Source: a virus (lineage: Duplodnaviria; Caudoviricetes). Taken from it: 29,588 nt of DNA. The notes below the pieces were generated by a model, which saw only the letters and a list, made by a program, of their open reading frames with translations, was not told the DNA's origin and did no database searches. Below, in pieces: positions 637 to 9,099 of this stretch; the stretch's first letter is position 1, and each line of letters begins with the position of its first letter. The stretch is taken from IMG/VR virus record IMGVR_UViG_3300009472_000016, positions 1 to 29,588 of that record. One strand, written 5' to 3'. A program made the position numbers and the translations under genes.

Positions 637-906
637 ATGGAAACCAACAAGAGCGTCCTTGGACCAAGTCGAAAGAACACGGATCAGAAATATTACCACG
701 GCGATGAATGGCACACCTGTTTCGATGAGGCCGAGATGGTCCTAGAGGAACACCCCGAATGTCAGATTATTGAGATCGGTGTCCTGCAGCGGTTGCCGTC
801 GGTCTGGGCAGTCAGATGGGTTGACTGCGATGGCTGCTCTGAGGTCTCCGAGTTCGAGACCGAATCTGCGGCAGACTCTTTTGCCAAAACGGTGCACCCG
901 TCATGA
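637..906 (+). CDS. Small acidic hypothetical phage protein
   Basis: ATG at 637 preceded by AAGGAGAGAGAG; stop overlaps the next start (ATGA at 903-906). Confidence 0.7.
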   Translation: METNKSVLGPSRKNTDQKYYHGDEWHTCFDEAEMVLEEHPECQIIEIGVLQRLPSVWAVRWVDCDGCSEVSEFETESAADSFAKTVHPS

Positions 907-1493
907 CTGCCCCCACTGAATTCCCGCTCGCGTGGCCCATCGATCGGGTCCGGACCCGTCGCCCTGTTGAGGGGCAGTTCAAGACGACGCTGCACAAGGC
1001 GGTCGAGAATGTGCGCCGGTCTTTGCGCCTTTTGGGTGACGACACGGGCAAGCGCATCGATGTCAATCAGATCGTGATCAGCTCAAATGTCGGCGGTTTA
1101 TCCGGTCGGGCGCCTGCGGATCCTGCCGTCGCGGTCTATTTCCACTGGGACGATCGCCCGCAATGTGTTGCCTGTGATCGGTACCGGACCGTCGCCCATA
1201 ACGTCCAAGCGATCCACATGTTGATCGAAGCGCGGCGGACAGATTTCCGGCATGGCGGGTTGCACTTCCTGCGCGCCAGTTTCGAAGGTCACAAAGGCCT
1301 GCCCGCCCCCGCCGGTCACGGGGATCCGTTCGCCGTGTTGGGATTGCCGCGTTCCGCCAGCGCGGCCGACATCAAGTCAGCGGCCAAGCGCCTTGCGCTG
1401 ACCCATCATCCGGATCGCCCCGGCGGATCGACCGAGGATATGAGCAAGATCAATGAAGCGCGCGACAAAGCCCTGGCAGAGGCAGCGCCATGA
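903..1493 (+). CDS. Phage J-domain (DnaJ-like) protein
   Basis: C-terminal DPFAVLGL...ADIKSAAKRLALTHHPDRPGGS..MSKINEARD with intact HPD; N-terminal FPLAWP / DPAVAVYF / ACDRY domain typical of phage J proteins. Confidence 0.88.
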   Translation: MTAPTEFPLAWPIDRVRTRRPVEGQFKTTLHKAVENVRRSLRLLGDDTGKRIDVNQIVISSNVGGLSGRAPADPAVAVYFHWDDRPQCVACDRYRTVAHNVQAIHMLIEARRTDFRHGGLHFLRASFEGHKGLPAPAGHGDPFAVLGLPRSASAADIKSAAKRLALTHHPDRPGGSTEDMSKINEARDKALAEAAP

Positions 1494-1693
1494 CCGCCGC
1501 GACCCTGTCACCCCGCGACCGCGATGTGATCCGGCATTGGCGGGGAGAGCTGTCGGCGACGGCCGTCGGCGCGGCTCGCATCGAACGCCGCCCGCCCGCC
1601 CTGATCGCAGCCGGATATCTCACCCCCGGCAATTGCACCCCCACCGCCCAAGCCCTGGGCGCCCTGTCAAAATGTGAAGGTTTATCATCATGA
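1490..1693 (+). CDS. Small hypothetical protein
   Basis: ATGA overlaps with both neighbours, consistent with translational coupling. Confidence 0.65.
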   Translation: MTAATLSPRDRDVIRHWRGELSATAVGAARIERRPPALIAAGYLTPGNCTPTAQALGALSKCEGLSS

Positions 1694-2787
1694 GCAAGAT
1701 CGAATGGACAGACGCAACGTGGAACCCGCTTGTCGGCTGTGCGGTGACGTCGCCAGGCTGCACCAATTGTTACGCGATGGCGATGGCTGGGCGGCTGGAA
1801 GCGATGAACGAAGCGACGGGCAAGACACCGCATTATGCGGGTCTGACCCGAAAAGTGAATGGCAAGACCGTTTGGACCGGCAAGGTCGGGCAAGCCCCGG
1901 ACGCCGTGTGGGAACAACCGCTGCGGCGGCGTAAACCGACGACCTATTTCGTCAATTCGATGGGGGATTTGTTTCATCCGGAAGTGACGGACGATCAGAT
2001 CGATCGCGTCTTTGCCATCATGGCGCTCGCGCCGCAGCACCGGTTTCAAGTGCTGACCAAGCATCCAGAGCGGATGCGGGATTGGATGATAGCGGATCCA
2101 TTCTCTCGCATTTTAAATGTTCGCGTTCAGGGTATCTCGGTATTCGATCAAATTGCGAAGGGCCGGAAGCTCAGTTTTCAAGAGTGGCCACTCCCCAACG
2201 TCTGGCTCGGCGTGTCCGTCGAGGATCAGCGCCGCGCAGACGAGCGCATCCCGCTCTTGCTCGATACGCCGGCCGCCGTGCGGTTCGTGTCGTGCGAACC
2301 GTTGCTGGGGCCGGTGAATTTGACGCTGATCCAAAAGGCTGGGACCGGAACGGAGGACGCCCCCGTCCAAGGAGACTATTGGTTATCCGCGATACATGGG
2401 GGTGCGTGCGTGTTTGATCCTGACCCTGGGCAGGATCCTGATGAAGGCTGGGTCCATATTTTTGATGCCCACCCAAAGCTCGACTGGGTCATCGTCGGCG
2501 GGGAAAGTGGTCCCGATGCGCGGCCCATGCACCCCGATTGGGCGCGGTCGATCCGTGACCAATGTGCCGATGCGGACGTCCCGTTTTTCTTCAAGCAGTG
2601 GGGCGAATATTTTCCGCATGGCATGACATGGAAAGAGGGCGGAGACTATTCCTCTGCATACATCAGAGAAGCGCCTGTTTCTCTTCCGAGCGGAACAATG
2701 GTTTACCGAGTCGGCAAATCAAAAGCAGGACGTCTCCTTGATGGCGTGGTGCATGACGCCATGCCTGCTGCGGAGGCGCAGTCATGA
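1690..2787 (+). CDS. Phage Gp37/Gp68 (DUF5131) family protein
   Basis: MSKIEWTDATWNP, CxxxSPGCxNCYA, FVNSMGDLFH, PNVWLGVSVEDQ, VRFVSCEPLLG, DWVIVGGESG, PFFFKQWG. Confidence 0.93.
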   Translation: MSKIEWTDATWNPLVGCAVTSPGCTNCYAMAMAGRLEAMNEATGKTPHYAGLTRKVNGKTVWTGKVGQAPDAVWEQPLRRRKPTTYFVNSMGDLFHPEVTDDQIDRVFAIMALAPQHRFQVLTKHPERMRDWMIADPFSRILNVRVQGISVFDQIAKGRKLSFQEWPLPNVWLGVSVEDQRRADERIPLLLDTPAAVRFVSCEPLLGPVNLTLIQKAGTGTEDAPVQGDYWLSAIHGGACVFDPDPGQDPDEGWVHIFDAHPKLDWVIVGGESGPDARPMHPDWARSIRDQCADADVPFFFKQWGEYFPHGMTWKEGGDYSSAYIREAPVSLPSGTMVYRVGKSKAGRLLDGVVHDAMPAAEAQS

Positions 2788-4502: not shown

Positions 4503-4888
4503 CCCCCGCCTGGGCCGAAAAATATCAGACGATCAGCGAAGATCAGGCGATGGATATTTTGGGTCTATCGCAGCGGCGCCTGCGGACATTATCGGATGAA
4601 TTGGGCGCCTGTCTGCGGACTGGGGCGAATGGCAAAGGCGCGCGGCGGTTCACAGAACGTCATTTGCAAATGATTATCGGGCAGCTTAACGCACAATCAT
4701 GCTCACGCTCGATCAAAGGCCGTCCGGTATCTGGCGTATCCGCGGCACGCACCACGGCGTCCGGATCGACCAGAGCGCGCGAACTCGCAGCAAAACAGAG
4801 GCGCGCGCGATCCTCAAGCAACTCGAAGTCAGCATCTTCGCCGATGTTCACGGAGTCGCCTTGCCAGGGCAGGCGTCAAGGTCGGTAA
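4499..4888 (+). CDS. Excisionase-like / MerR-type HTH protein
   Basis: ISEDQAMDILGLSQRRLR...ARRFTERHL winged-HTH pattern; TTG start overlapping the upstream stop; lies directly before and overlaps the integrase gene. Confidence 0.65.
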   Translation: MTPAWAEKYQTISEDQAMDILGLSQRRLRTLSDELGACLRTGANGKGARRFTERHLQMIIGQLNAQSCSRSIKGRPVSGVSAARTTASGSTRARELAAKQRRARSSSNSKSASSPMFTESPCQGRRQGR

Positions 4889-5712
4889 GTGAACCGACCT
4901 TTGGCGACGCCGCTGCGCTGTGGCTCGAAGCCGGCGGGAACTCGACGCTTTATTTTTATTTCGACACGGTGATCCATGCGATCGGCGATACGGCGTTGTC
5001 GGATATCACCAATGGATATCTTCACCGTCAAGCGCGCAAGCTATTTCCGACTCAATCCGCGTCCACCATCAACCGTGGATATTTCGCGCTCGCCAGCGTG
5101 ATCATGACCCACGCGGCGGAGGAAAAGCTCGCTCCGCCGATCAAGATTCGGAAGCTCAAGACAGAAAAGTCGGCCTATGAGTGGTATGAACCGGAACGGA
5201 TCGAGGCGTTAATCACGGCGGCTGGTCCGATGGCGCCGCTGATCACATTTTGCGTGGCGTCCGGCGCGCGCACATCGGAAGTCATGTCTTTGACTTGGGG
5301 GCAGGTGGGGCTGGATGGACGGCGGATCGTCTTTTGGAAAACCAAGGGTGGCCGCGTCCGGAGTTTCGATCTGTGTGCGCGTGGCCGCGCGGCGCTGCCA
5401 GAGCGCGGGGCAGATGACGTTCATGTCTGGCTTGATGGCAATGGTGAGCCCTATTCCCAGTCGCCGGACAAACGCTACTACGGGCCGAAGCGACGGCTGG
5501 ACCGGCTGACAAAGCGTGTGGGCCTTCCGCGCACCAGCATTCGGTCGTTCCGGCACACTTGGGCGACGTGGCAATATTCAGTCAATCCGGATCTGCTGAA
5601 GCTACAGGAAAAAGGTGGCTGGTCGACCGTTGCGATGGTACAGAACTACACACACGTCGCTAGCCCAGAGATAAAGAAGCGGGTGTTGGACCATGGTTGG
5701 TTCCAGGATTAA
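4699..5712 (+). CDS. int: Tyrosine recombinase / phage integrase
   Basis: SGARTSE (R), KTK (K), RSFRHTWAT, GGWS (W), VQNYTH (Y); N-terminal GIWRIRGT arm-binding-like strand; adjacent to an att site. Confidence 0.92.
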   Translation: MLTLDQRPSGIWRIRGTHHGVRIDQSARTRSKTEARAILKQLEVSIFADVHGVALPGQASRSVSEPTFGDAAALWLEAGGNSTLYFYFDTVIHAIGDTALSDITNGYLHRQARKLFPTQSASTINRGYFALASVIMTHAAEEKLAPPIKIRKLKTEKSAYEWYEPERIEALITAAGPMAPLITFCVASGARTSEVMSLTWGQVGLDGRRIVFWKTKGGRVRSFDLCARGRAALPERGADDVHVWLDGNGEPYSQSPDKRYYGPKRRLDRLTKRVGLPRTSIRSFRHTWATWQYSVNPDLLKLQEKGGWSTVAMVQNYTHVASPEIKKRVLDHGWFQD

Positions 5713-5714
5713 GT

Positions 5715-5974
5715 TGGGCAATATCTGGGCAATTTTGGTGTGTTCCTAGAAAAATATTCGATAATTCAATCGCTTATATAAACAGATCCCGAACATTGAC
5801 ATTGTAGGGGTCACTGGTTCAATCCCAGTATCGCCCACCACGGATTTTCTCTTTAAAATCAAATATTAAGCGCAGCTTTAGCGGTGTTTTCATCTGCTTT
5901 ATTGGTGTCGAAACATGCGAAAAGAGGCGTGTTTTTGGGCCTGTTTGATCAAAGGTGTGGGCAATATCTGGGCA
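5715..5974 (+). repeat. Integrase arm-type direct repeats TGGGCAATATCTGGGCA at 5715-5731 and 5958-5974
   Basis: Exact 17-bp repeat, each containing two TGGGCA, on both sides of the att core; AT-rich IHF-like near-matches lie between them. Confidence 0.8.
5793..5840 (+). other. attP core: 3' half of tRNA-Val(GAC)
   Basis: ACA-TTGACAT-TGTAG GGGTC ACTGG TTCAATC CCAGT ATCGCCC ACCA gives the anticodon loop GAC, T-arm, acceptor 3' strand and CCA. The D-arm and acceptor 5' strand are absent. Confidence 0.9.
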
Positions 5975-6016: not shown

Positions 6017-6823
6017 ATGCGCACTTTGATTCTGTTTTTGTTGTCCGTCTGTTTTTGCGGGGTCTTGCCGGCCTCCGCCTGGGCGTGGGGGAAGACGGGG
6101 CACAGGGTCGGCGGGGCGATCGCGGAGGCGTATTTGTCGCCGGAGGCGCGGGCCGGTGTTGCGGCGCTGGTTGGGGTTGAGACCTTGGCGGAAGGGTCGG
6201 TGTGGGCCGATTTCATGCGCAGTTCGAATGAGAGTTTTTGGCGGCGGGAGGCGGGGCCTTGGCATTATGTCACCGTGCCGGACGGAGAGAGCTATGACAC
6301 GGCCGTCGCGCCGGATGAGGGCGATTCTGTGACGGCATTGGCGCGGTTTCGCGCGGAGATCGTAAACCCGGACCTGCCGCTGGCGGAGCGGCAGCGGGCG
6401 CTTCGGTTTGCGGTTCACATCATCGGCGATTTGCATCAGCCGCTGCATGCCGGCAACGGCGACGACCGGGGCGGCAATGACGTGCAGATCAAATGGTTTG
6501 GCGACATGACGCGGCTGCACACAATCTGGGACACGAAGATCGTTGATCATCAGCAATTGAGTTACACGGAAATGGCCGAGGGGCTGTCACGCCGGATCAC
6601 GCCGGAGCAGGCGTCCGCGTGGGACGATCCGGATCCGCGCGTGTGGATCGCGGAGAGCGTGGCGCTGCGGCCCGGTGTTTATCCGGGTGAGGCGCGCAAA
6701 GATCTGCGCTGGAATTATGTGTTTGATCATCAGGCGACCGTCGATTTGCGCCTGAGCCAGTCCGGTGTGCGAATCGCCAGCTGGCTGAATGACGTGTTTG
6801 CCGCCGCGCCCGCTGCGCCGTGA
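6017..6823 (+). CDS. Secreted S1/P1 nuclease
   Basis: Sec signal peptide ending AWA, then mature WGKTGH; WAD, WHY, HIIGDLHQPLH, GGN and LHTIWD supply the tri-zinc ligand set. Confidence 0.93.
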   Translation: MRTLILFLLSVCFCGVLPASAWAWGKTGHRVGGAIAEAYLSPEARAGVAALVGVETLAEGSVWADFMRSSNESFWRREAGPWHYVTVPDGESYDTAVAPDEGDSVTALARFRAEIVNPDLPLAERQRALRFAVHIIGDLHQPLHAGNGDDRGGNDVQIKWFGDMTRLHTIWDTKIVDHQQLSYTEMAEGLSRRITPEQASAWDDPDPRVWIAESVALRPGVYPGEARKDLRWNYVFDHQATVDLRLSQSGVRIASWLNDVFAAAPAAP

Positions 6824-7101
6824 TTTGGGGGCTGCTGCTGGTTTTGGCGGCGGCGATGGTCGCCAATGCGCTGTTGGCGCATAACCGGCTTGTGGCGCGG
6901 TTGGAGCGGCGACGGCTGGCGGATGTGGCGCAGGGCGGGCCCCCGCCGCCCTTGCGCGGTGTGTCGGGGCATGAACGCGCCGATATTCAGATCGAGATGC
7001 ACCGGATGAGCCTGATGACCCGGCGGGAACGCTGGATCATGGGGGCGCAGTGGTGGGCCATTCCCGTCGTTGTCGGCGGTGCGGCGTGGGCGTTGTTTTA
7101 A
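6820..7101 (+). CDS. Small membrane protein
   Basis: Hydrophobic N- and C-terminal segments; GTGA overlap with the nuclease stop. Confidence 0.6.
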   Translation: MIWGLLLVLAAAMVANALLAHNRLVARLERRRLADVAQGGPPPPLRGVSGHERADIQIEMHRMSLMTRRERWIMGAQWWAIPVVVGGAAWALF

Positions 7102-7421
7102 GCTTTCTCGCGGCCCTTTTTGCCGCCCCTTTTCCCCCCGTCTTTGCCCCGCTTGCCGCCCCAATCGACACTGAGACCGACATGGAGTTTGGGTAGGCCG
7201 TGGGTTTTGGCGTCCCACGGGTGGAGATCCTGCGCCAAGGCGGTCATGGCGAGGCGCGTGTCACGCGGGATGGCCGCGCCGTTTTGATAGTCACGGATGC
7301 GGTCCCGGCTTTTGCCCAACGCCTCGGCCGCTTTGGCTTGGCCGCCATGGCTGTTGAAGTCCATCTCGGCCATCCAGGCCGCGAAGTCGGTGGCGTCTGA
7401 TGTTTTATGGGTGTCTTGCAT
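7098..7421 (-). CDS. Cro/XRE-like HTH protein with Gly/Lys-rich tail
   Basis: DFAAWMAEM...QAKAAEALGKSRDRIRDYQNG..IP...LAM.AL. Confidence 0.8.
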   Translation of the reverse strand: MQDTHKTSDATDFAAWMAEMDFNSHGGQAKAAEALGKSRDRIRDYQNGAAIPRDTRLAMTALAQDLHPWDAKTHGLPKLHVGLSVDWGGKRGKDGGKRGGKKGREKA

Positions 7422-7455
7422 TTTTCGATCATGGTGATTAAATGAAAGTCACGGT

Positions 7456-7481
7456 GCAGCGCCCCCCGTAGGGGACACTGC
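7456..7481 (-). promoter_or_regulatory. 11-bp RNA hairpin with cUACGg tetraloop just after the peptide stop
   Basis: Minus strand GCAGUGUCCCC-UACG-GGGGGCGCUGC; two G:U pairs work only on the minus strand. Confidence 0.75.
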
Positions 7482-7486
7482 TTCGT

Positions 7487-7561
7487 TTAGAACTTGATGG
7501 TCAGTTTCAGTTTGAACCCTAAAAACTTGACCGTCAGCTTAAACAACCGTGGGATTTTCAT
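7487..7561 (-). CDS. 24-aa cationic amphipathic peptide MKIPRLFKLTVKFLGFKLKLTIKF (candidate toxin)
   Basis: Strong SD GAAAGGATGGTGA 7 nt before the ATG at 7561; upstream promoter and downstream hairpin. Confidence 0.7.
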   Translation of the reverse strand: MKIPRLFKLTVKFLGFKLKLTIKF

Positions 7562-7617
7562 TCCATAATCACCATCCTTTCTATGTTTTATTGGGCGGGC
7601 TTCATTGCCCGTCCATG

Positions 7618-7696
7618 CTATTTTAATGCCGGAAAATCCGGCATATGTCAATAGAAAAGCGGAATAATTCGGCATTTATACCGGAAACACGGGCTG
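7618..7696 (-). promoter_or_regulatory. Sigma70 promoter with palindromic operator ATGCCGGA-N3-TCCGGCAT (7626-7644) and two degenerate copies
   Basis: TTGACA on the minus strand at 7651-7646; perfect 8-bp inverted repeat in the spacer; related sites at 7657-7675 and 7678-7696. Confidence 0.72.
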
Positions 7697-7842
7697 TTTT
7701 TCTGGTCGAGACTGCGGCGTGGATTGTGTAGCTTGACAGATGGCACTGGTGTGTGGGAGTCCGCCGAGGCGTTCCGATGGAACGTCCGGGTCTTGACAAG
7801 CTCGCGCGCAGATTGCCTCGCGTTATTGCGAATTCGTCTTTT

Positions 7843-7938
7843 ATGGGCGGGTGGCTGGGGAGTCCTTCGGGGCTGCCGGGCCGCGATTCCGGCTTTCGGT
7901 CGCGTGCTTTGGTTTGTCAACCCCGGTTCATCCGCCCA
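7843..7938 (+). ncRNA. C4-like (P1 c4 / P4 CI type) antisense RNA
   Basis: Closing stem 7844-7860 / 7921-7938; internal CCTTCGG hairpin; TTGTCAA (7914-7920) complementary to TTGACAA upstream (7793-7799) and downstream (7944-7950, in a hairpin loop). Confidence 0.75.
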
Positions 7939-7975
7939 CCAGATTGACAACTGGTGGTTATCGAAAGTCCATAAA

Positions 7976-8233
7976 ATGACCACACAATCCACGAATCCCA
8001 TTCCCATCGACACGACCCCGCTGCCCGGCAGTTTGCTGGGTAATGCGTGCCGCGCGCTGGGCTTCCGGCGCACCGAATTCACGAACAGCCGCGGCTGTCG
8101 TATCTCGATTGACGTTTCCGACGAAATCAGTGGCGATGGGCACACGCAAGCCTGCAAGGACCTTGTCATTGCGCTGCTGGCTGGACGGGCGTCTCTGATC
8201 GAGACCACCGCGCCGGATGGCCGTCATGTCTGA
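7976..8233 (+). CDS. Hypothetical protein downstream of the C4-like RNA
   Basis: ATG just after the downstream C4 target; shares the LG.AC..LG.RR motif with the next ORF. Confidence 0.65.
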   Translation: MTTQSTNPIPIDTTPLPGSLLGNACRALGFRRTEFTNSRGCRISIDVSDEISGDGHTQACKDLVIALLAGRASLIETTAPDGRHV

Positions 8234-8558
8234 GCGCGCCGTTCCGAGCGAGGTTCCCGTCCCCTTTGAAAACCCCGGGCCGAGCCCGTCCCGCGACACG
8301 ACGCCCGAATCGACGTCGGTATTGGGTATGGCCTGCAATGTGTTGGGCCTGCGGCGGATTGAAGGGCGTGGCCATGATGGCGAGCCCGAAATCTGGATCG
8401 ATACGCGCGGGCGCGTCCAGCTGGACCATTGTCCGCTGGCGCTTTACACGTTGGTGCTGCAATTATTGCGCAGGGATGATGTGGACGCGGCGGATCAGGT
8501 CGCGTTTATTCCGGCCGTTGCGCGCGCGACCGTGCCGGATGGGGCGACGGCGCAGTAA
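8226..8558 (+). CDS. Hypothetical protein, probable paralog of 7976..8233
   Basis: SVLGMACNVLGLRRIE motif; overlaps the upstream stop. The start could instead be 8217. Confidence 0.65.
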   Translation: MSERAVPSEVPVPFENPGPSPSRDTTPESTSVLGMACNVLGLRRIEGRGHDGEPEIWIDTRGRVQLDHCPLALYTLVLQLLRRDDVDAADQVAFIPAVARATVPDGATAQ

Positions 8559-8569
8559 AAGGACAGACC

Positions 8570-8851
8570 ATGCCGCATAAAACCGTGAATGGTGAGGCGA
8601 TCGAGACGGGACGGTGTCGGCATTGTTCGACGCCGTTGGCCGTGGAGACGGGCGTGACCTGCGGGCCGTGTCAGGCCGCGCATGAGGTGGCCCGCCGGCG
8701 CGAATTGGCGGCGATCCGGCGGCGTGATCCGGCGGTCGATGTGGCGGCGTTGGCGCGGCATTACGGCCTATCACAAGACCGTATTTGGGCCATCATCGAG
8801 GCGGCGTCGCCCGTCGTGGGTGTACCCAATCCGGGCGTTCAGCATCGATAG
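8570..8851 (+). CDS. Zn-ribbon plus HTH (Mor-like) small regulator
   Basis: CRHC...CGPC, then VAALARHYGLSQDRIWAII; SD AAAGGA. Confidence 0.7.
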   Translation: MPHKTVNGEAIETGRCRHCSTPLAVETGVTCGPCQAAHEVARRRELAAIRRRDPAVDVAALARHYGLSQDRIWAIIEAASPVVGVPNPGVQHR

Positions 8852-8902
8852 CGGCGCGCTTCGCCACCCTGCTGCGCGTCGCCGCGTCTAACCCCCCTTA
8901 TC

Positions 8903-8935
8903 GCCCGGATTGGCTCTGCTGATCCGGGCTTTTTT
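8903..8935 (+). terminator. Rho-independent terminator
   Basis: GCCCGGATTGGC-TCT-GCTGATCCGGGC followed by T6. Confidence 0.75.
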
Positions 8936-9099
8936 GTGCGACCTGGGTCGGTTTTGGCCCGATTTCGCCCCCGCTCCCCCAGCCTAGCCCCCCTTATCGA
9001 CGCCCTTTTTCCTGCCCCCGCCCCCTTGTGATGGGCAGACAGGGAAGGGCGCACCGGGGCGACGTCGCCACAATTTATCGTTTATCGTATAATCCGGCA

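Follow-up and report, generated by a model that had tools for sequence, protein, structure and literature searches.

Among described systems, the acr-aca operons appear to offer the closest published layout to the element reported here, a cassette on the minus strand at positions 7098-7696 of the virus record IMGVR_UViG_3300009472_000016. The whole of that record, 29,588 bases long and estimated to be 59% complete, was analysed and is referred to below as the window. As described for acr-aca1, the operons carry an inverted repeat in the promoter, a second upstream copy of it in a fraction of cases, and an RNA hairpin that lies just past the start site and ends a few tens of nucleotides before the first start codon (PMC13551039). 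The window cassette shares with the operons so described a small first gene, a helix-turn-helix (HTH) gene in last place whose product is a predicted autorepressor, inverted-repeat operators in and upstream of the promoter, and a hairpin in the 5' untranslated region. As in that layout, its operator O1 falls between the -35 and -10 elements and its hairpin P1 at the predicted 5' end of the RNA, and the same holds for two related loci, L002 and L007. It differs in that the first gene has 24-27 codons and is embedded in a three-way-junction RNA predicted to pair with the gene's own Shine-Dalgarno (SD) sequence or start codon.

We favour, with somewhat less than even confidence, the reading that the cassette is a prophage cargo operon in which a self-repressed promoter would drive a folded leader that hides the ribosome-binding site (RBS) and start codon of a cationic peptide, likely a harmful, toxin-like effector, followed by the HTH gene. 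Comparison of homologous loci establishes, at the level of sequence, the layout, its conservation, a coding signature in the small open reading frame (ORF), compensatory RNA helices and the confinement of the operators to the cassette. An initial annotation of the same DNA had proposed a toxin-antitoxin-like module combining a 24-residue peptide, a cis-antisense RNA and an autoregulatory HTH protein. The minus-strand features that it listed (a TTGACA promoter element, operators, 5' hairpin, SD, ORF, UNCG-capped hairpin and HTH gene) are all present and, judging from the comparisons, it was right to see a hidden, self-contained and conserved cassette.

Type I toxin mRNAs provide a second point of comparison. 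Structured transcripts with a hidden RBS occur in this class, in which aapA/IsoA is grouped. Type I toxin mRNAs, among them those of zorO and hok, typically sequester the SD, the hok mRNA is activated by 3' processing, and the known membrane toxins carry a hydrophobic helix, unlike the window peptide (PMC8309996). The hok/sok, aapA/IsoA and zorO/orzO mRNAs share with the cassette a tiny ORF, a structured and probably stable mRNA, carriage on prophages or plasmids, and an RBS hidden by a downstream segment such that 3' processing would activate translation. The cassette ORF, of 24-27 codons in the five loci described below, also lies within the type I range of less than about 60 codons. In contrast to those systems, the peptide here is not hydrophobic, the mRNA runs on into a regulator gene, the cassette is present in single copy and the antisense RNA is putative. 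Because it has no transmembrane helix, the peptide is not a classical type I toxin, and the type I logic that had been ascribed to the cassette fails on this point.

Toxin-first type II systems of the higBA, mqsRA and hicAB types place the toxin gene first and an XRE-HTH antitoxin gene second. They resemble the cassette in the order of a small gene and an HTH gene, in a palindromic operator that overlaps the promoter, and in the weak HipB- and HigA-like matches of the HTH protein, whereas the first product here is far smaller (24-27 amino acids) and the HTH gene stands alone at 6 of 11 loci. Loci with the HTH gene and without the peptide show that the HTH protein is no dedicated antitoxin, contrary to the type II-like partnership proposed earlier. 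C proteins such as C.AhdI, itself among the fold matches of the HTH protein, are small dimeric XRE-type regulators that act on operators in their own promoter and delay or limit a harmful partner; the operon described here differs in containing no restriction or methylase gene, its regulated product being a micropeptide. Antisense regulators of phages include P22 sar and lambda oop. Like these and the P1-type C4 RNA, the leader would be a short phage RNA governing translation in an immunity region, and a C4 RNA lies 220 bp away; that RNA, however, is a separate gene on the opposite strand, and an antisense RNA over the small ORF is putative.

Conservation of the layout and of the small ORF

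The small ORF (7561-7487, minus strand) consists of 24 codons and a TAA stop and encodes MKIPRLFKLTVKFLGFKLKLTIKF, a peptide of net charge +7 in which hydrophobic and polar residues alternate. It is preceded by the SD-like sequences AAGGA and GGTGAT (7579-7568, minus strand), the latter 6 nt before the ATG, and followed by the gene for the XRE/Cro-type HTH protein, a predicted autorepressor of 107 amino acids (7421-7098, minus strand). The family of this protein is small: an exhaustive search returned 19 representatives at E <= 1e-3 and a word-based search three proteins. Pattern scans with an 8-row HTH alignment found loci L002, L003, L004, L007 and L008, and these scans, together with searches of 401, 257 and 152 genomes, gave 11 distinct loci with an HTH homologue (L005 denotes the window, L006 has two base changes relative to the window, both outside the cassette, and L002 is identical to L025 of genome G078).

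Five of the 11 loci (the window, L002 in G078, L007, L027 in G304 and L065 in G269) share one order of elements, namely a promoter with palindromic operators, a 5' hairpin, an SD, an ORF of 24-27 codons, a GC-rich hairpin with a stable loop and an XRE-type HTH gene. The window, L002 and L007 are grouped as subfamily A, and L027 and L065 as subfamily B. In addition to the window peptide, the ORFs encode MKIKYLWFSLTLKFFGLKIEFKIKR (L002), MKIKHFRLKFQIKFLGLKLKLEIKI (L007), MLLKLKLLFGKGKRRIELQLKIRLKP (L027) and MFLKLKLLLRKTKKRIAAQLTIRFRLF (L065). The GC-rich hairpin, termed P4, carries the loop UACG in the window, GCAA in L002, GAGA in L007 and GAAA in L065; the corresponding loop of L027 is not a tetraloop. 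The small ORF that the initial annotation suggested looking for upstream of HTH homologues is thus conserved at these five loci and the hairpins recur with it, while the convergent promoter is not positionally conserved.

The ORF looks translated. An SD spaced 6-8 nt from an ATG or GTG start is present in all five copies, with AAGGAG 8 nt before GTG in L002 and L007 and GGGAG 7 nt before ATG in L027 and L065. Differences within subfamily A, summed over the three pairs, number 30, 14 and 42 at codon positions 1, 2 and 3, respectively, so that position 2 is the most conserved, and the indel in this subfamily is one whole codon, in frame. The two members of subfamily B, compared over 25 codons, have 10 identical, 4 synonymous and 11 changed codons, with 7, 7 and 13 differences at the three positions; this similarity is retained despite a contrast in G+C content upstream, a 360-nt stretch of L027 having 36% G+C and the leader of L065 being visibly G+C-rich. 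The other two sense frames of the subfamily A loci contain stops (5 and 1, 3 and 3, and 4 and 4), and an in-frame TAA four codons upstream of the GTG of L007 precludes a longer product there.

The pattern of the peptide is conserved along with the frame. Its charge lies between +6 and +8, and the strictly alternating cationic pattern is kept across the two diverged subfamilies. The hydrophobic moment at 180 degrees exceeded that of composition-matched shuffles in each of the four peptides tested (p = 0.015, 0.021, 0.0002 and 0.033; L065 was left out), and the peptide is predicted to fold as a beta-hairpin type.

Gene callers do not see micropeptide genes as small as these, as the initial annotation had anticipated for this cassette. 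The exact peptides of 24-26 amino acids, four of the five having been looked up, have no entry in a collection of about 15 billion proteins; the only call made is the source gene caller's 62-amino acid protein (7490-7675, minus strand), which contains the window peptide and begins upstream of the -35 element. This longer ORF was rejected as a real product on account of that start, its unconserved N-terminal part and the in-frame stop just before the GTG in L007. No description of such a peptide was found in the open-access literature searched, which does not prove its absence in print.

Further searches returned few additional relatives. No match was found in single-protein HTH scans of genome contigs and viral contigs, in viral scans with the HTH proteins of L027 and L007, or in a phage collection searched by blastn (7050-8300) and tblastn (HTH protein); an 18-row alignment was too diverse for pattern scans. 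A DNA pattern based on P1 gave eight stretches in viral contigs, one of them true (L011, which is the L002 contig) and seven unrelated hairpins. Further copies of the leader were sought in G078, G304, G002, G003 and G049 and none was found; the cassette is single copy in both G078 and G304. A peptide profile run over 257 genomes of the family of G078 recovered only that genome's own copy, and four weaker matches at E 0.015-0.1 were discarded because they lie within longer unrelated frames (36-94 amino acids), three of them far from the frame start. A plasmid match in Devosia (40%, E 6e-4) was likewise set aside, the upstream gene there ending 18 nt before the HTH gene and leaving no space for a leader. 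A heuristic scan of the weaker HTH matches (L028-L048 and L066-L069) revealed no comparable ORF. Many of the distant matches in the bacterial order of these genomes (L028, L034-L036, L040, L042, L047, L048, L066 and L067) adjoin tRNA-like sequence and are preceded at short distance by a shared translated motif, MEPPGTAPGS...; small XRE genes seem to be common there at the borders of tRNA-linked islands.

The folded leader RNA and the antisense question

The RNA spanning 7640-7400 has a predicted folding energy of -86.1 kcal/mol, compared with -54.8 +/- 4.5 for shuffled sequences (z = -6.99), and none of 200 shuffles was as good, while the plus-strand version of the same stretch gave a z-score of -4.34. 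Elsewhere, L027 gave -5.43 and L065 -4.07 (mononucleotide shuffles). Taken with the recurrence of the layout at four other loci, this is beyond what chance would produce.

The predicted fold is a three-way junction in which helix P2 encloses P3 and P4 (all coordinates on the minus strand). P1 is a 5'-terminal hairpin at 7615-7592 whose lower stem of 3 bp is separated by an A x C mismatch from an upper stem of 5 bp; 30 nt lie between its end and the ATG, and it shows two compensatory pairs among the three subfamily A loci, one of them in the upper stem. The 5' arms of P2 (7575-7566, 7562-7556 and 7551-7546) cover GGTGAT, the start codon and codons 4-6, and pair with 7440-7431, 7447-7441 and 7455-7450, respectively, 3' arms that follow P4 directly and leave 9 nt to the HTH start codon. 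P3 (7545-7484) is an imperfect hairpin of 24 bp comprising the ORF body and stop codon, and P4 (7481-7456) is an 11-bp GC-rich hairpin with a UACG loop and two G.U pairs that exist in the minus-strand RNA alone.

The same four elements were found independently in the window, L002 and L007. RNAalifold returned 50 consensus pairs for subfamily A, 22 of them with a compensatory change in at least one sequence, and P4 keeps two G.U pairs in the sense orientation at all three loci. The sense RNA is also the more stable at each of them, with sense/antisense energies of -79.8/-76.5, -61.6/-56.2 and -78.4/-70.4. What the minimum-energy P2 sequesters varies, being the SD in L065, the start codon in both L002 and L007, and SD together with start codon in the window. 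The sequences that form P2 also differ by locus, for example CCGGGAG/CUCCCGG just past P4 in L065 and GAUGUGA..UAAGCACUUCC with GGAAGUGCUUAUCACAUC in L007. As far as such comparison shows, the leader is thus a real, conserved structured RNA. No Rfam family matches 7430-7620. Pairing between the leader and the neighbouring C4 RNA showed no excess over shuffled sequences (-68.9 against a mean of -66.6, sd 5.6) in a crude calculation in which a whole-length duplex ignores internal structure.

Such strong conservation of RNA structure raises the question of whether the frame arises incidentally from an A/U-rich hairpin with codon-by-codon complementarity between its arms (AAA/UUU, AAG/CUU), the RNA itself being non-coding. 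The loop of the subfamily A hairpin does coincide with the Gly turn of the peptide, and an antisense frame that shares third codon positions is open at all three subfamily A loci, as this explanation would allow. Against it stand the period-three substitutions, with codon position 2 the most conserved, the in-frame indel, and the SD and start retained in five of five copies; in addition, the peptide pattern persists in L027 and L065 although the RNA hairpin there is out of register. The loop of L027 lies over the second strand of the peptide and not over the Gly turn, which argues that the alternating pattern is no mere reflection of the hairpin. We regard a purely non-coding RNA as very improbable.

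The initial annotation had read the plus strand as encoding an antitoxin, a cis-antisense RNA of about 170 nt that would run from a promoter-like element at 7416-7445 (TTGCAT at 7417-7422 and TAAATG at 7440-7445, or TG-n-TTAAAT) to a terminator hairpin at 7592-7615, with the HTH protein as an extra transcriptional layer. The TTGCAT and TAAATG motifs are indeed present, but as a promoter the element is weak and unconserved: it is not listed by a consensus scan, its position weight matrix score of 7.2 is no better than that of others in this AT-rich stretch, and it has no positional counterpart in L002 or L007. Promoter-like matches facing the ORF do occur at all three subfamily A loci, which speaks for an antisense transcript of some kind, yet their positions within the ORF vary by locus (TTGAGA-17-TAAACT in L002, with a score of 14.2, and TTGGAA-17-TAATCT in L007). 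In the window, the alternative match TAAACA-18-CATAAT (7540-7569, plus strand) would give a putative RNA of about 45 nt, comprising an anti-SD and the antisense of the P1 hairpin.

The proposed terminator is open to the same two-sided reading. When 7592-7615 is read on the plus strand, a G.U pair replaces the A x C mismatch at three of three subfamily A loci, and a T-rich tail follows; this would suit a terminator, and SD sequestration is typical of type I mRNAs (PMC8309996). The three hairpins are, however, close relatives, the T-rich tail is the -10 region of the sense promoter read in reverse, and in the P1 hairpin of L027 it is the sense orientation that has the G.U pair. The supposed terminator is thus the mRNA's own P1 and the promoter is weak, which makes the antisense RNA of about 170 nt a possibility and not an observation; as the annotation delimited it, the claim finds no support. 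The 5' hairpin can moreover be explained without an antisense RNA, since the 5' RNA motif of acr-aca1, to which the Aca HTH protein binds, combines a lower stem that is short and conserved with unpaired bases and an upper stem that covaries (PMC13551039). Given also a peptide that has no hydrophobic helix and is single copy in G078 and G304, we consider a type I module of this design decidedly unlikely; the cis-antisense reading is probably wrong, or at least unsupported.

Operators, regulator and a possible mechanism

The minus-strand promoter-like element (7651-7620) consists of TTGACA (7651-7646), a 17-nt spacer and CATTAA or TAAAAT (7628-7620), and aligns with TTGCAT-17-TATAAA in L002 and TTGCTT-17-TATATA in L007. 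Transcription is inferred to start at about the first base of P1. The spacer holds O1 (7626-7644), a perfect palindrome of 8+3+8 nt, ATGCCGGA-AAA-TCCGGCAT, whose full form occurs once in the window at up to three mismatches. Weaker operator-like copies, O2 (7656-7675, 75% identity) and O3 (7677-7696, 65%), lie upstream of the -35 element, and four half-sites within one mismatch cluster at 7626-7685, among them 7668-7675 (minus strand) and 7678-7685 (plus strand). In the provirus G001 (48.4 kb, 71% complete), the exact operator occurs twice, both times at the cassette promoter, with a one-mismatch site at 30,805. The operators are thus confined, in the sequence available, to the cassette's own promoter. 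The predicted recognition helix and the operator also covary, RDRIRDY in the window going with CCGGA-n3-TCCGG and R(R/K)TIERY in L002 and L007 with ACGACA-n3-TGTCG. Together, these features make autorepression of the cassette promoter by the HTH protein a well-founded inference.

An AlphaFold model of the HTH protein has helices at residues 4-19, 27-35, 39-46 and 53-63 in an XRE/Cro arrangement, and a pLDDT above 90 over residues 11-60. Its Pfam matches to HTH_3 and HTH_31 do not reach the threshold (one family member matches HTH_31 at E 3e-6), and its Atlas neighbours carry the names of XRE regulators. The other matches by sequence and fold, to NE0471, Aca1, HipB, C.AhdI, Cro and P2 C as well as HigA-like chains, are weak and generic. 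A role as the phage's master CI/Cro repressor was discounted as the main reading, since the promoter in L002 and L007 has no adjoining divergent early operon and operators are confined to the cassette. In the window, the cassette faces the c4 operon, and the protein may have a wider role there.

Could the cassette be an acr-aca-like operon, in which a burst of an anti-defence peptide at phage entry is ended by an Aca-like protein that acts on the promoter repeats and perhaps blocks translation through the P1 RNA? Its layout matches that described for acr-aca1 (PMC13551039), as do the stem architecture of P1 and the 30-nt distance from P1 to the ATG, and the top Foldseek rows of the HTH protein include Aca1 chains. 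Those rows, however, have E values of 0.6-1.1 and TM scores of 0.43-0.65 and are generic for XRE proteins, and P1 is nearly identical in the window and L007 even though their operators differ, which indicates that P1 is no operator mimic. A product of 24-27 amino acids is, to our knowledge, also far below the size of any known Acr. An anti-defence operon of this kind is therefore unlikely in our judgement.

Returning to the prophage cargo operon that we favour, a scheme may be proposed in which a dimer of the HTH protein binds O1-O3 and, after accumulating, would shut off transcription. The RNA would begin at P1, which would protect or stabilize its 5' end and might itself be bound by the HTH protein. 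Completion of the 3' arm of P2 would allow this helix to close over the SD and start codon of the peptide gene, and peptide translation would be limited to nascent RNA or to RNAs that lack this arm, through cleavage or a stop at P4. Such an arm-less RNA would be a compact mRNA between two stable hairpins, reminiscent of the 3' activation of hok mRNA (PMC8309996). Because the 3' arm of P2 lies 9-11 nt before the HTH start codon in subfamily A, ribosomes on the peptide gene would also free that start, coupling the two products. The peptide (+6 to +8, beta-amphipathic) would be produced in a short burst or after RNA processing and may act on membranes or nucleic acids, in abortive infection, exclusion or addiction. 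Three features point to a harmful or defence-related effector: the double lock, a peptide that is both strongly charged and amphipathic, and the setting among cargo genes.

A number of observations weigh against this reading. The small ORF is missing from six of the 11 HTH loci (L003, L004, L008, L026, L056 and L057): the leader of L003 has diverged, with a P1-like hairpin retained but a frame of just six codons, L004 and L056 have short leaders, and L026 and L057 have no such leader. The HTH protein must accordingly do something independent of the peptide, which could be a passenger or act as a regulatory upstream ORF (uORF). The instances number just five, in two subfamilies, and come from metagenome or virus contigs and genomes of one bacterial order; as a result, the pairwise comparisons behind the substitution counts lack independence. 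The peptide has no hydrophobic or transmembrane helix, its mean Eisenberg hydrophobicity being -0.15 to 0.15 with Lys or Arg every 1-4 residues. L027 has no long-range P2, a local hairpin covering the SD instead. The open antisense frame mentioned above is a further point, although in the window no SD or start is visible for it by eye and its equivalent of position 2 is less conserved. Finally, G001 is 71% complete, so further operator sites are possible.

The absence of the ORF from these loci also bears on an explanation in which the uORF and P1-P4 form a regulatory leader only, tuning mRNA stability and HTH translation, and the peptide has no function in trans. The leader then looks like an add-on to an autoregulated gene. 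The HTH gene has no clear SD in the loci inspected, and the distance from the P2 3' arm to its start (9 nt in the window, 10-11 nt in L002 and L007) is such that ribosomes on the uORF would free it. This coupling is not general, however, since the anti-SD arm of L065 lies 37 nt away and L027 has no long-range helix. The full-length physico-chemical pattern of the peptide is also kept in two diverged subfamilies, and cis-acting leader peptides usually need less whole-length conservation than is seen here. On balance, we find a leader without an effector rather doubtful.

More broadly, and with appreciable reserve, the cassette may represent an unrecognised class of phage micropeptide effectors, cationic beta-hairpins of 24-27 residues that would be locked in a three-way-junction RNA, released in a burst under an Aca- or C-protein-like HTH regulator, and serve as an abortive-infection toxin or anti-defence peptide at an attP-proximal hot spot of alphaproteobacterial prophages. 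With strong comparative support for both translation and RNA structure, the cassette would offer a clean test bed for the gating of a potentially harmful peptide by an mRNA fold. It also suits the questions of whether small XRE cargo regulators act on RNA besides DNA and of what cationic beta-hairpin peptides do inside bacteria.

A probable attachment site and neighbouring genes

A tyrosine integrase gene occupies 4699-5712 of the window. Directly past it, at about 5805-5846 on the plus strand, lies the 3' half of a tRNA (T arm, acceptor strand and CCA), where ARAGORN found no whole tRNA; it is likely the attP core. If so, integration would bring both the cassette and the nuclease genes to the end of the prophage, within the cargo DNA beside the attachment site. 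An S1/P1 nuclease gene (6017-6823, plus strand; Pfam E 8e-54) and a 93-amino acid ORF follow, and the cassette (7098-7696) lies on the strand opposite to both. The attP-proximal region of these marine alphaproteobacterial prophages is thereby marked as a cargo or defence hot spot, with nucleases and an AbiZ-like gene.

The AbiZ-like gene belongs to L007, where a protein of 398 amino acids (774-1970, plus strand) matches the AbiZ abortive-infection family (PADLOC PDLC02354, E 1.2e-13) and its gene, directly upstream of the cassette, ends about 20 bp before the operators; this agrees with the defence setting that the initial annotation had suggested. PADLOC gave no match for the HTH protein or for the window's neighbouring ORFs, a result that bears little on the acr-aca-like reading because the PADLOC models cover defence and not anti-defence. 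Nuclease cargo genes adjoin the cassette at all three subfamily A loci, the ORFs at L002 1-522 and L007 about 250-693 resembling staphylococcal nuclease by eye alone. At L008 (about 770-1100), an L007-like HTH gene stands alone beside a tRNA gene and is flanked by a direct repeat of about 25 nt, seen by eye; the locus looks like a decayed island that has retained only the HTH gene.

On the other side of the cassette, at a distance of 220 bp, a C4 antisense RNA (7839-7943, plus strand; Rfam RF01695, 54.2 bits against a gathering score of 45) opens a plus-strand operon that diverges from the cassette. It suggests that the window phage has a P1 immI-like antirepressor control module. In P1, icd and ant come after c4, a place that corresponds here to ORFs 7976-8233 and 8217-8558 (plus strand). 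These look paralogous by eye, with a common motif ...LG.AC..LG.RR.E..., and were assigned no family in profile and PADLOC searches. A further 93-amino acid ORF (8570-8851, plus strand) resembles Mor (Pfam E 0.005) and a late transcriptional activator (PHROG 836, E 0.001), in both cases below threshold, and the genes for the small and large terminase subunits lie beyond it on the same strand. Just past the Mor-like ORF, 8853-8937 (plus strand) resembles the Rfam family anti-hemB, again below threshold (28.2 bits against 49.5, E 0.0012).

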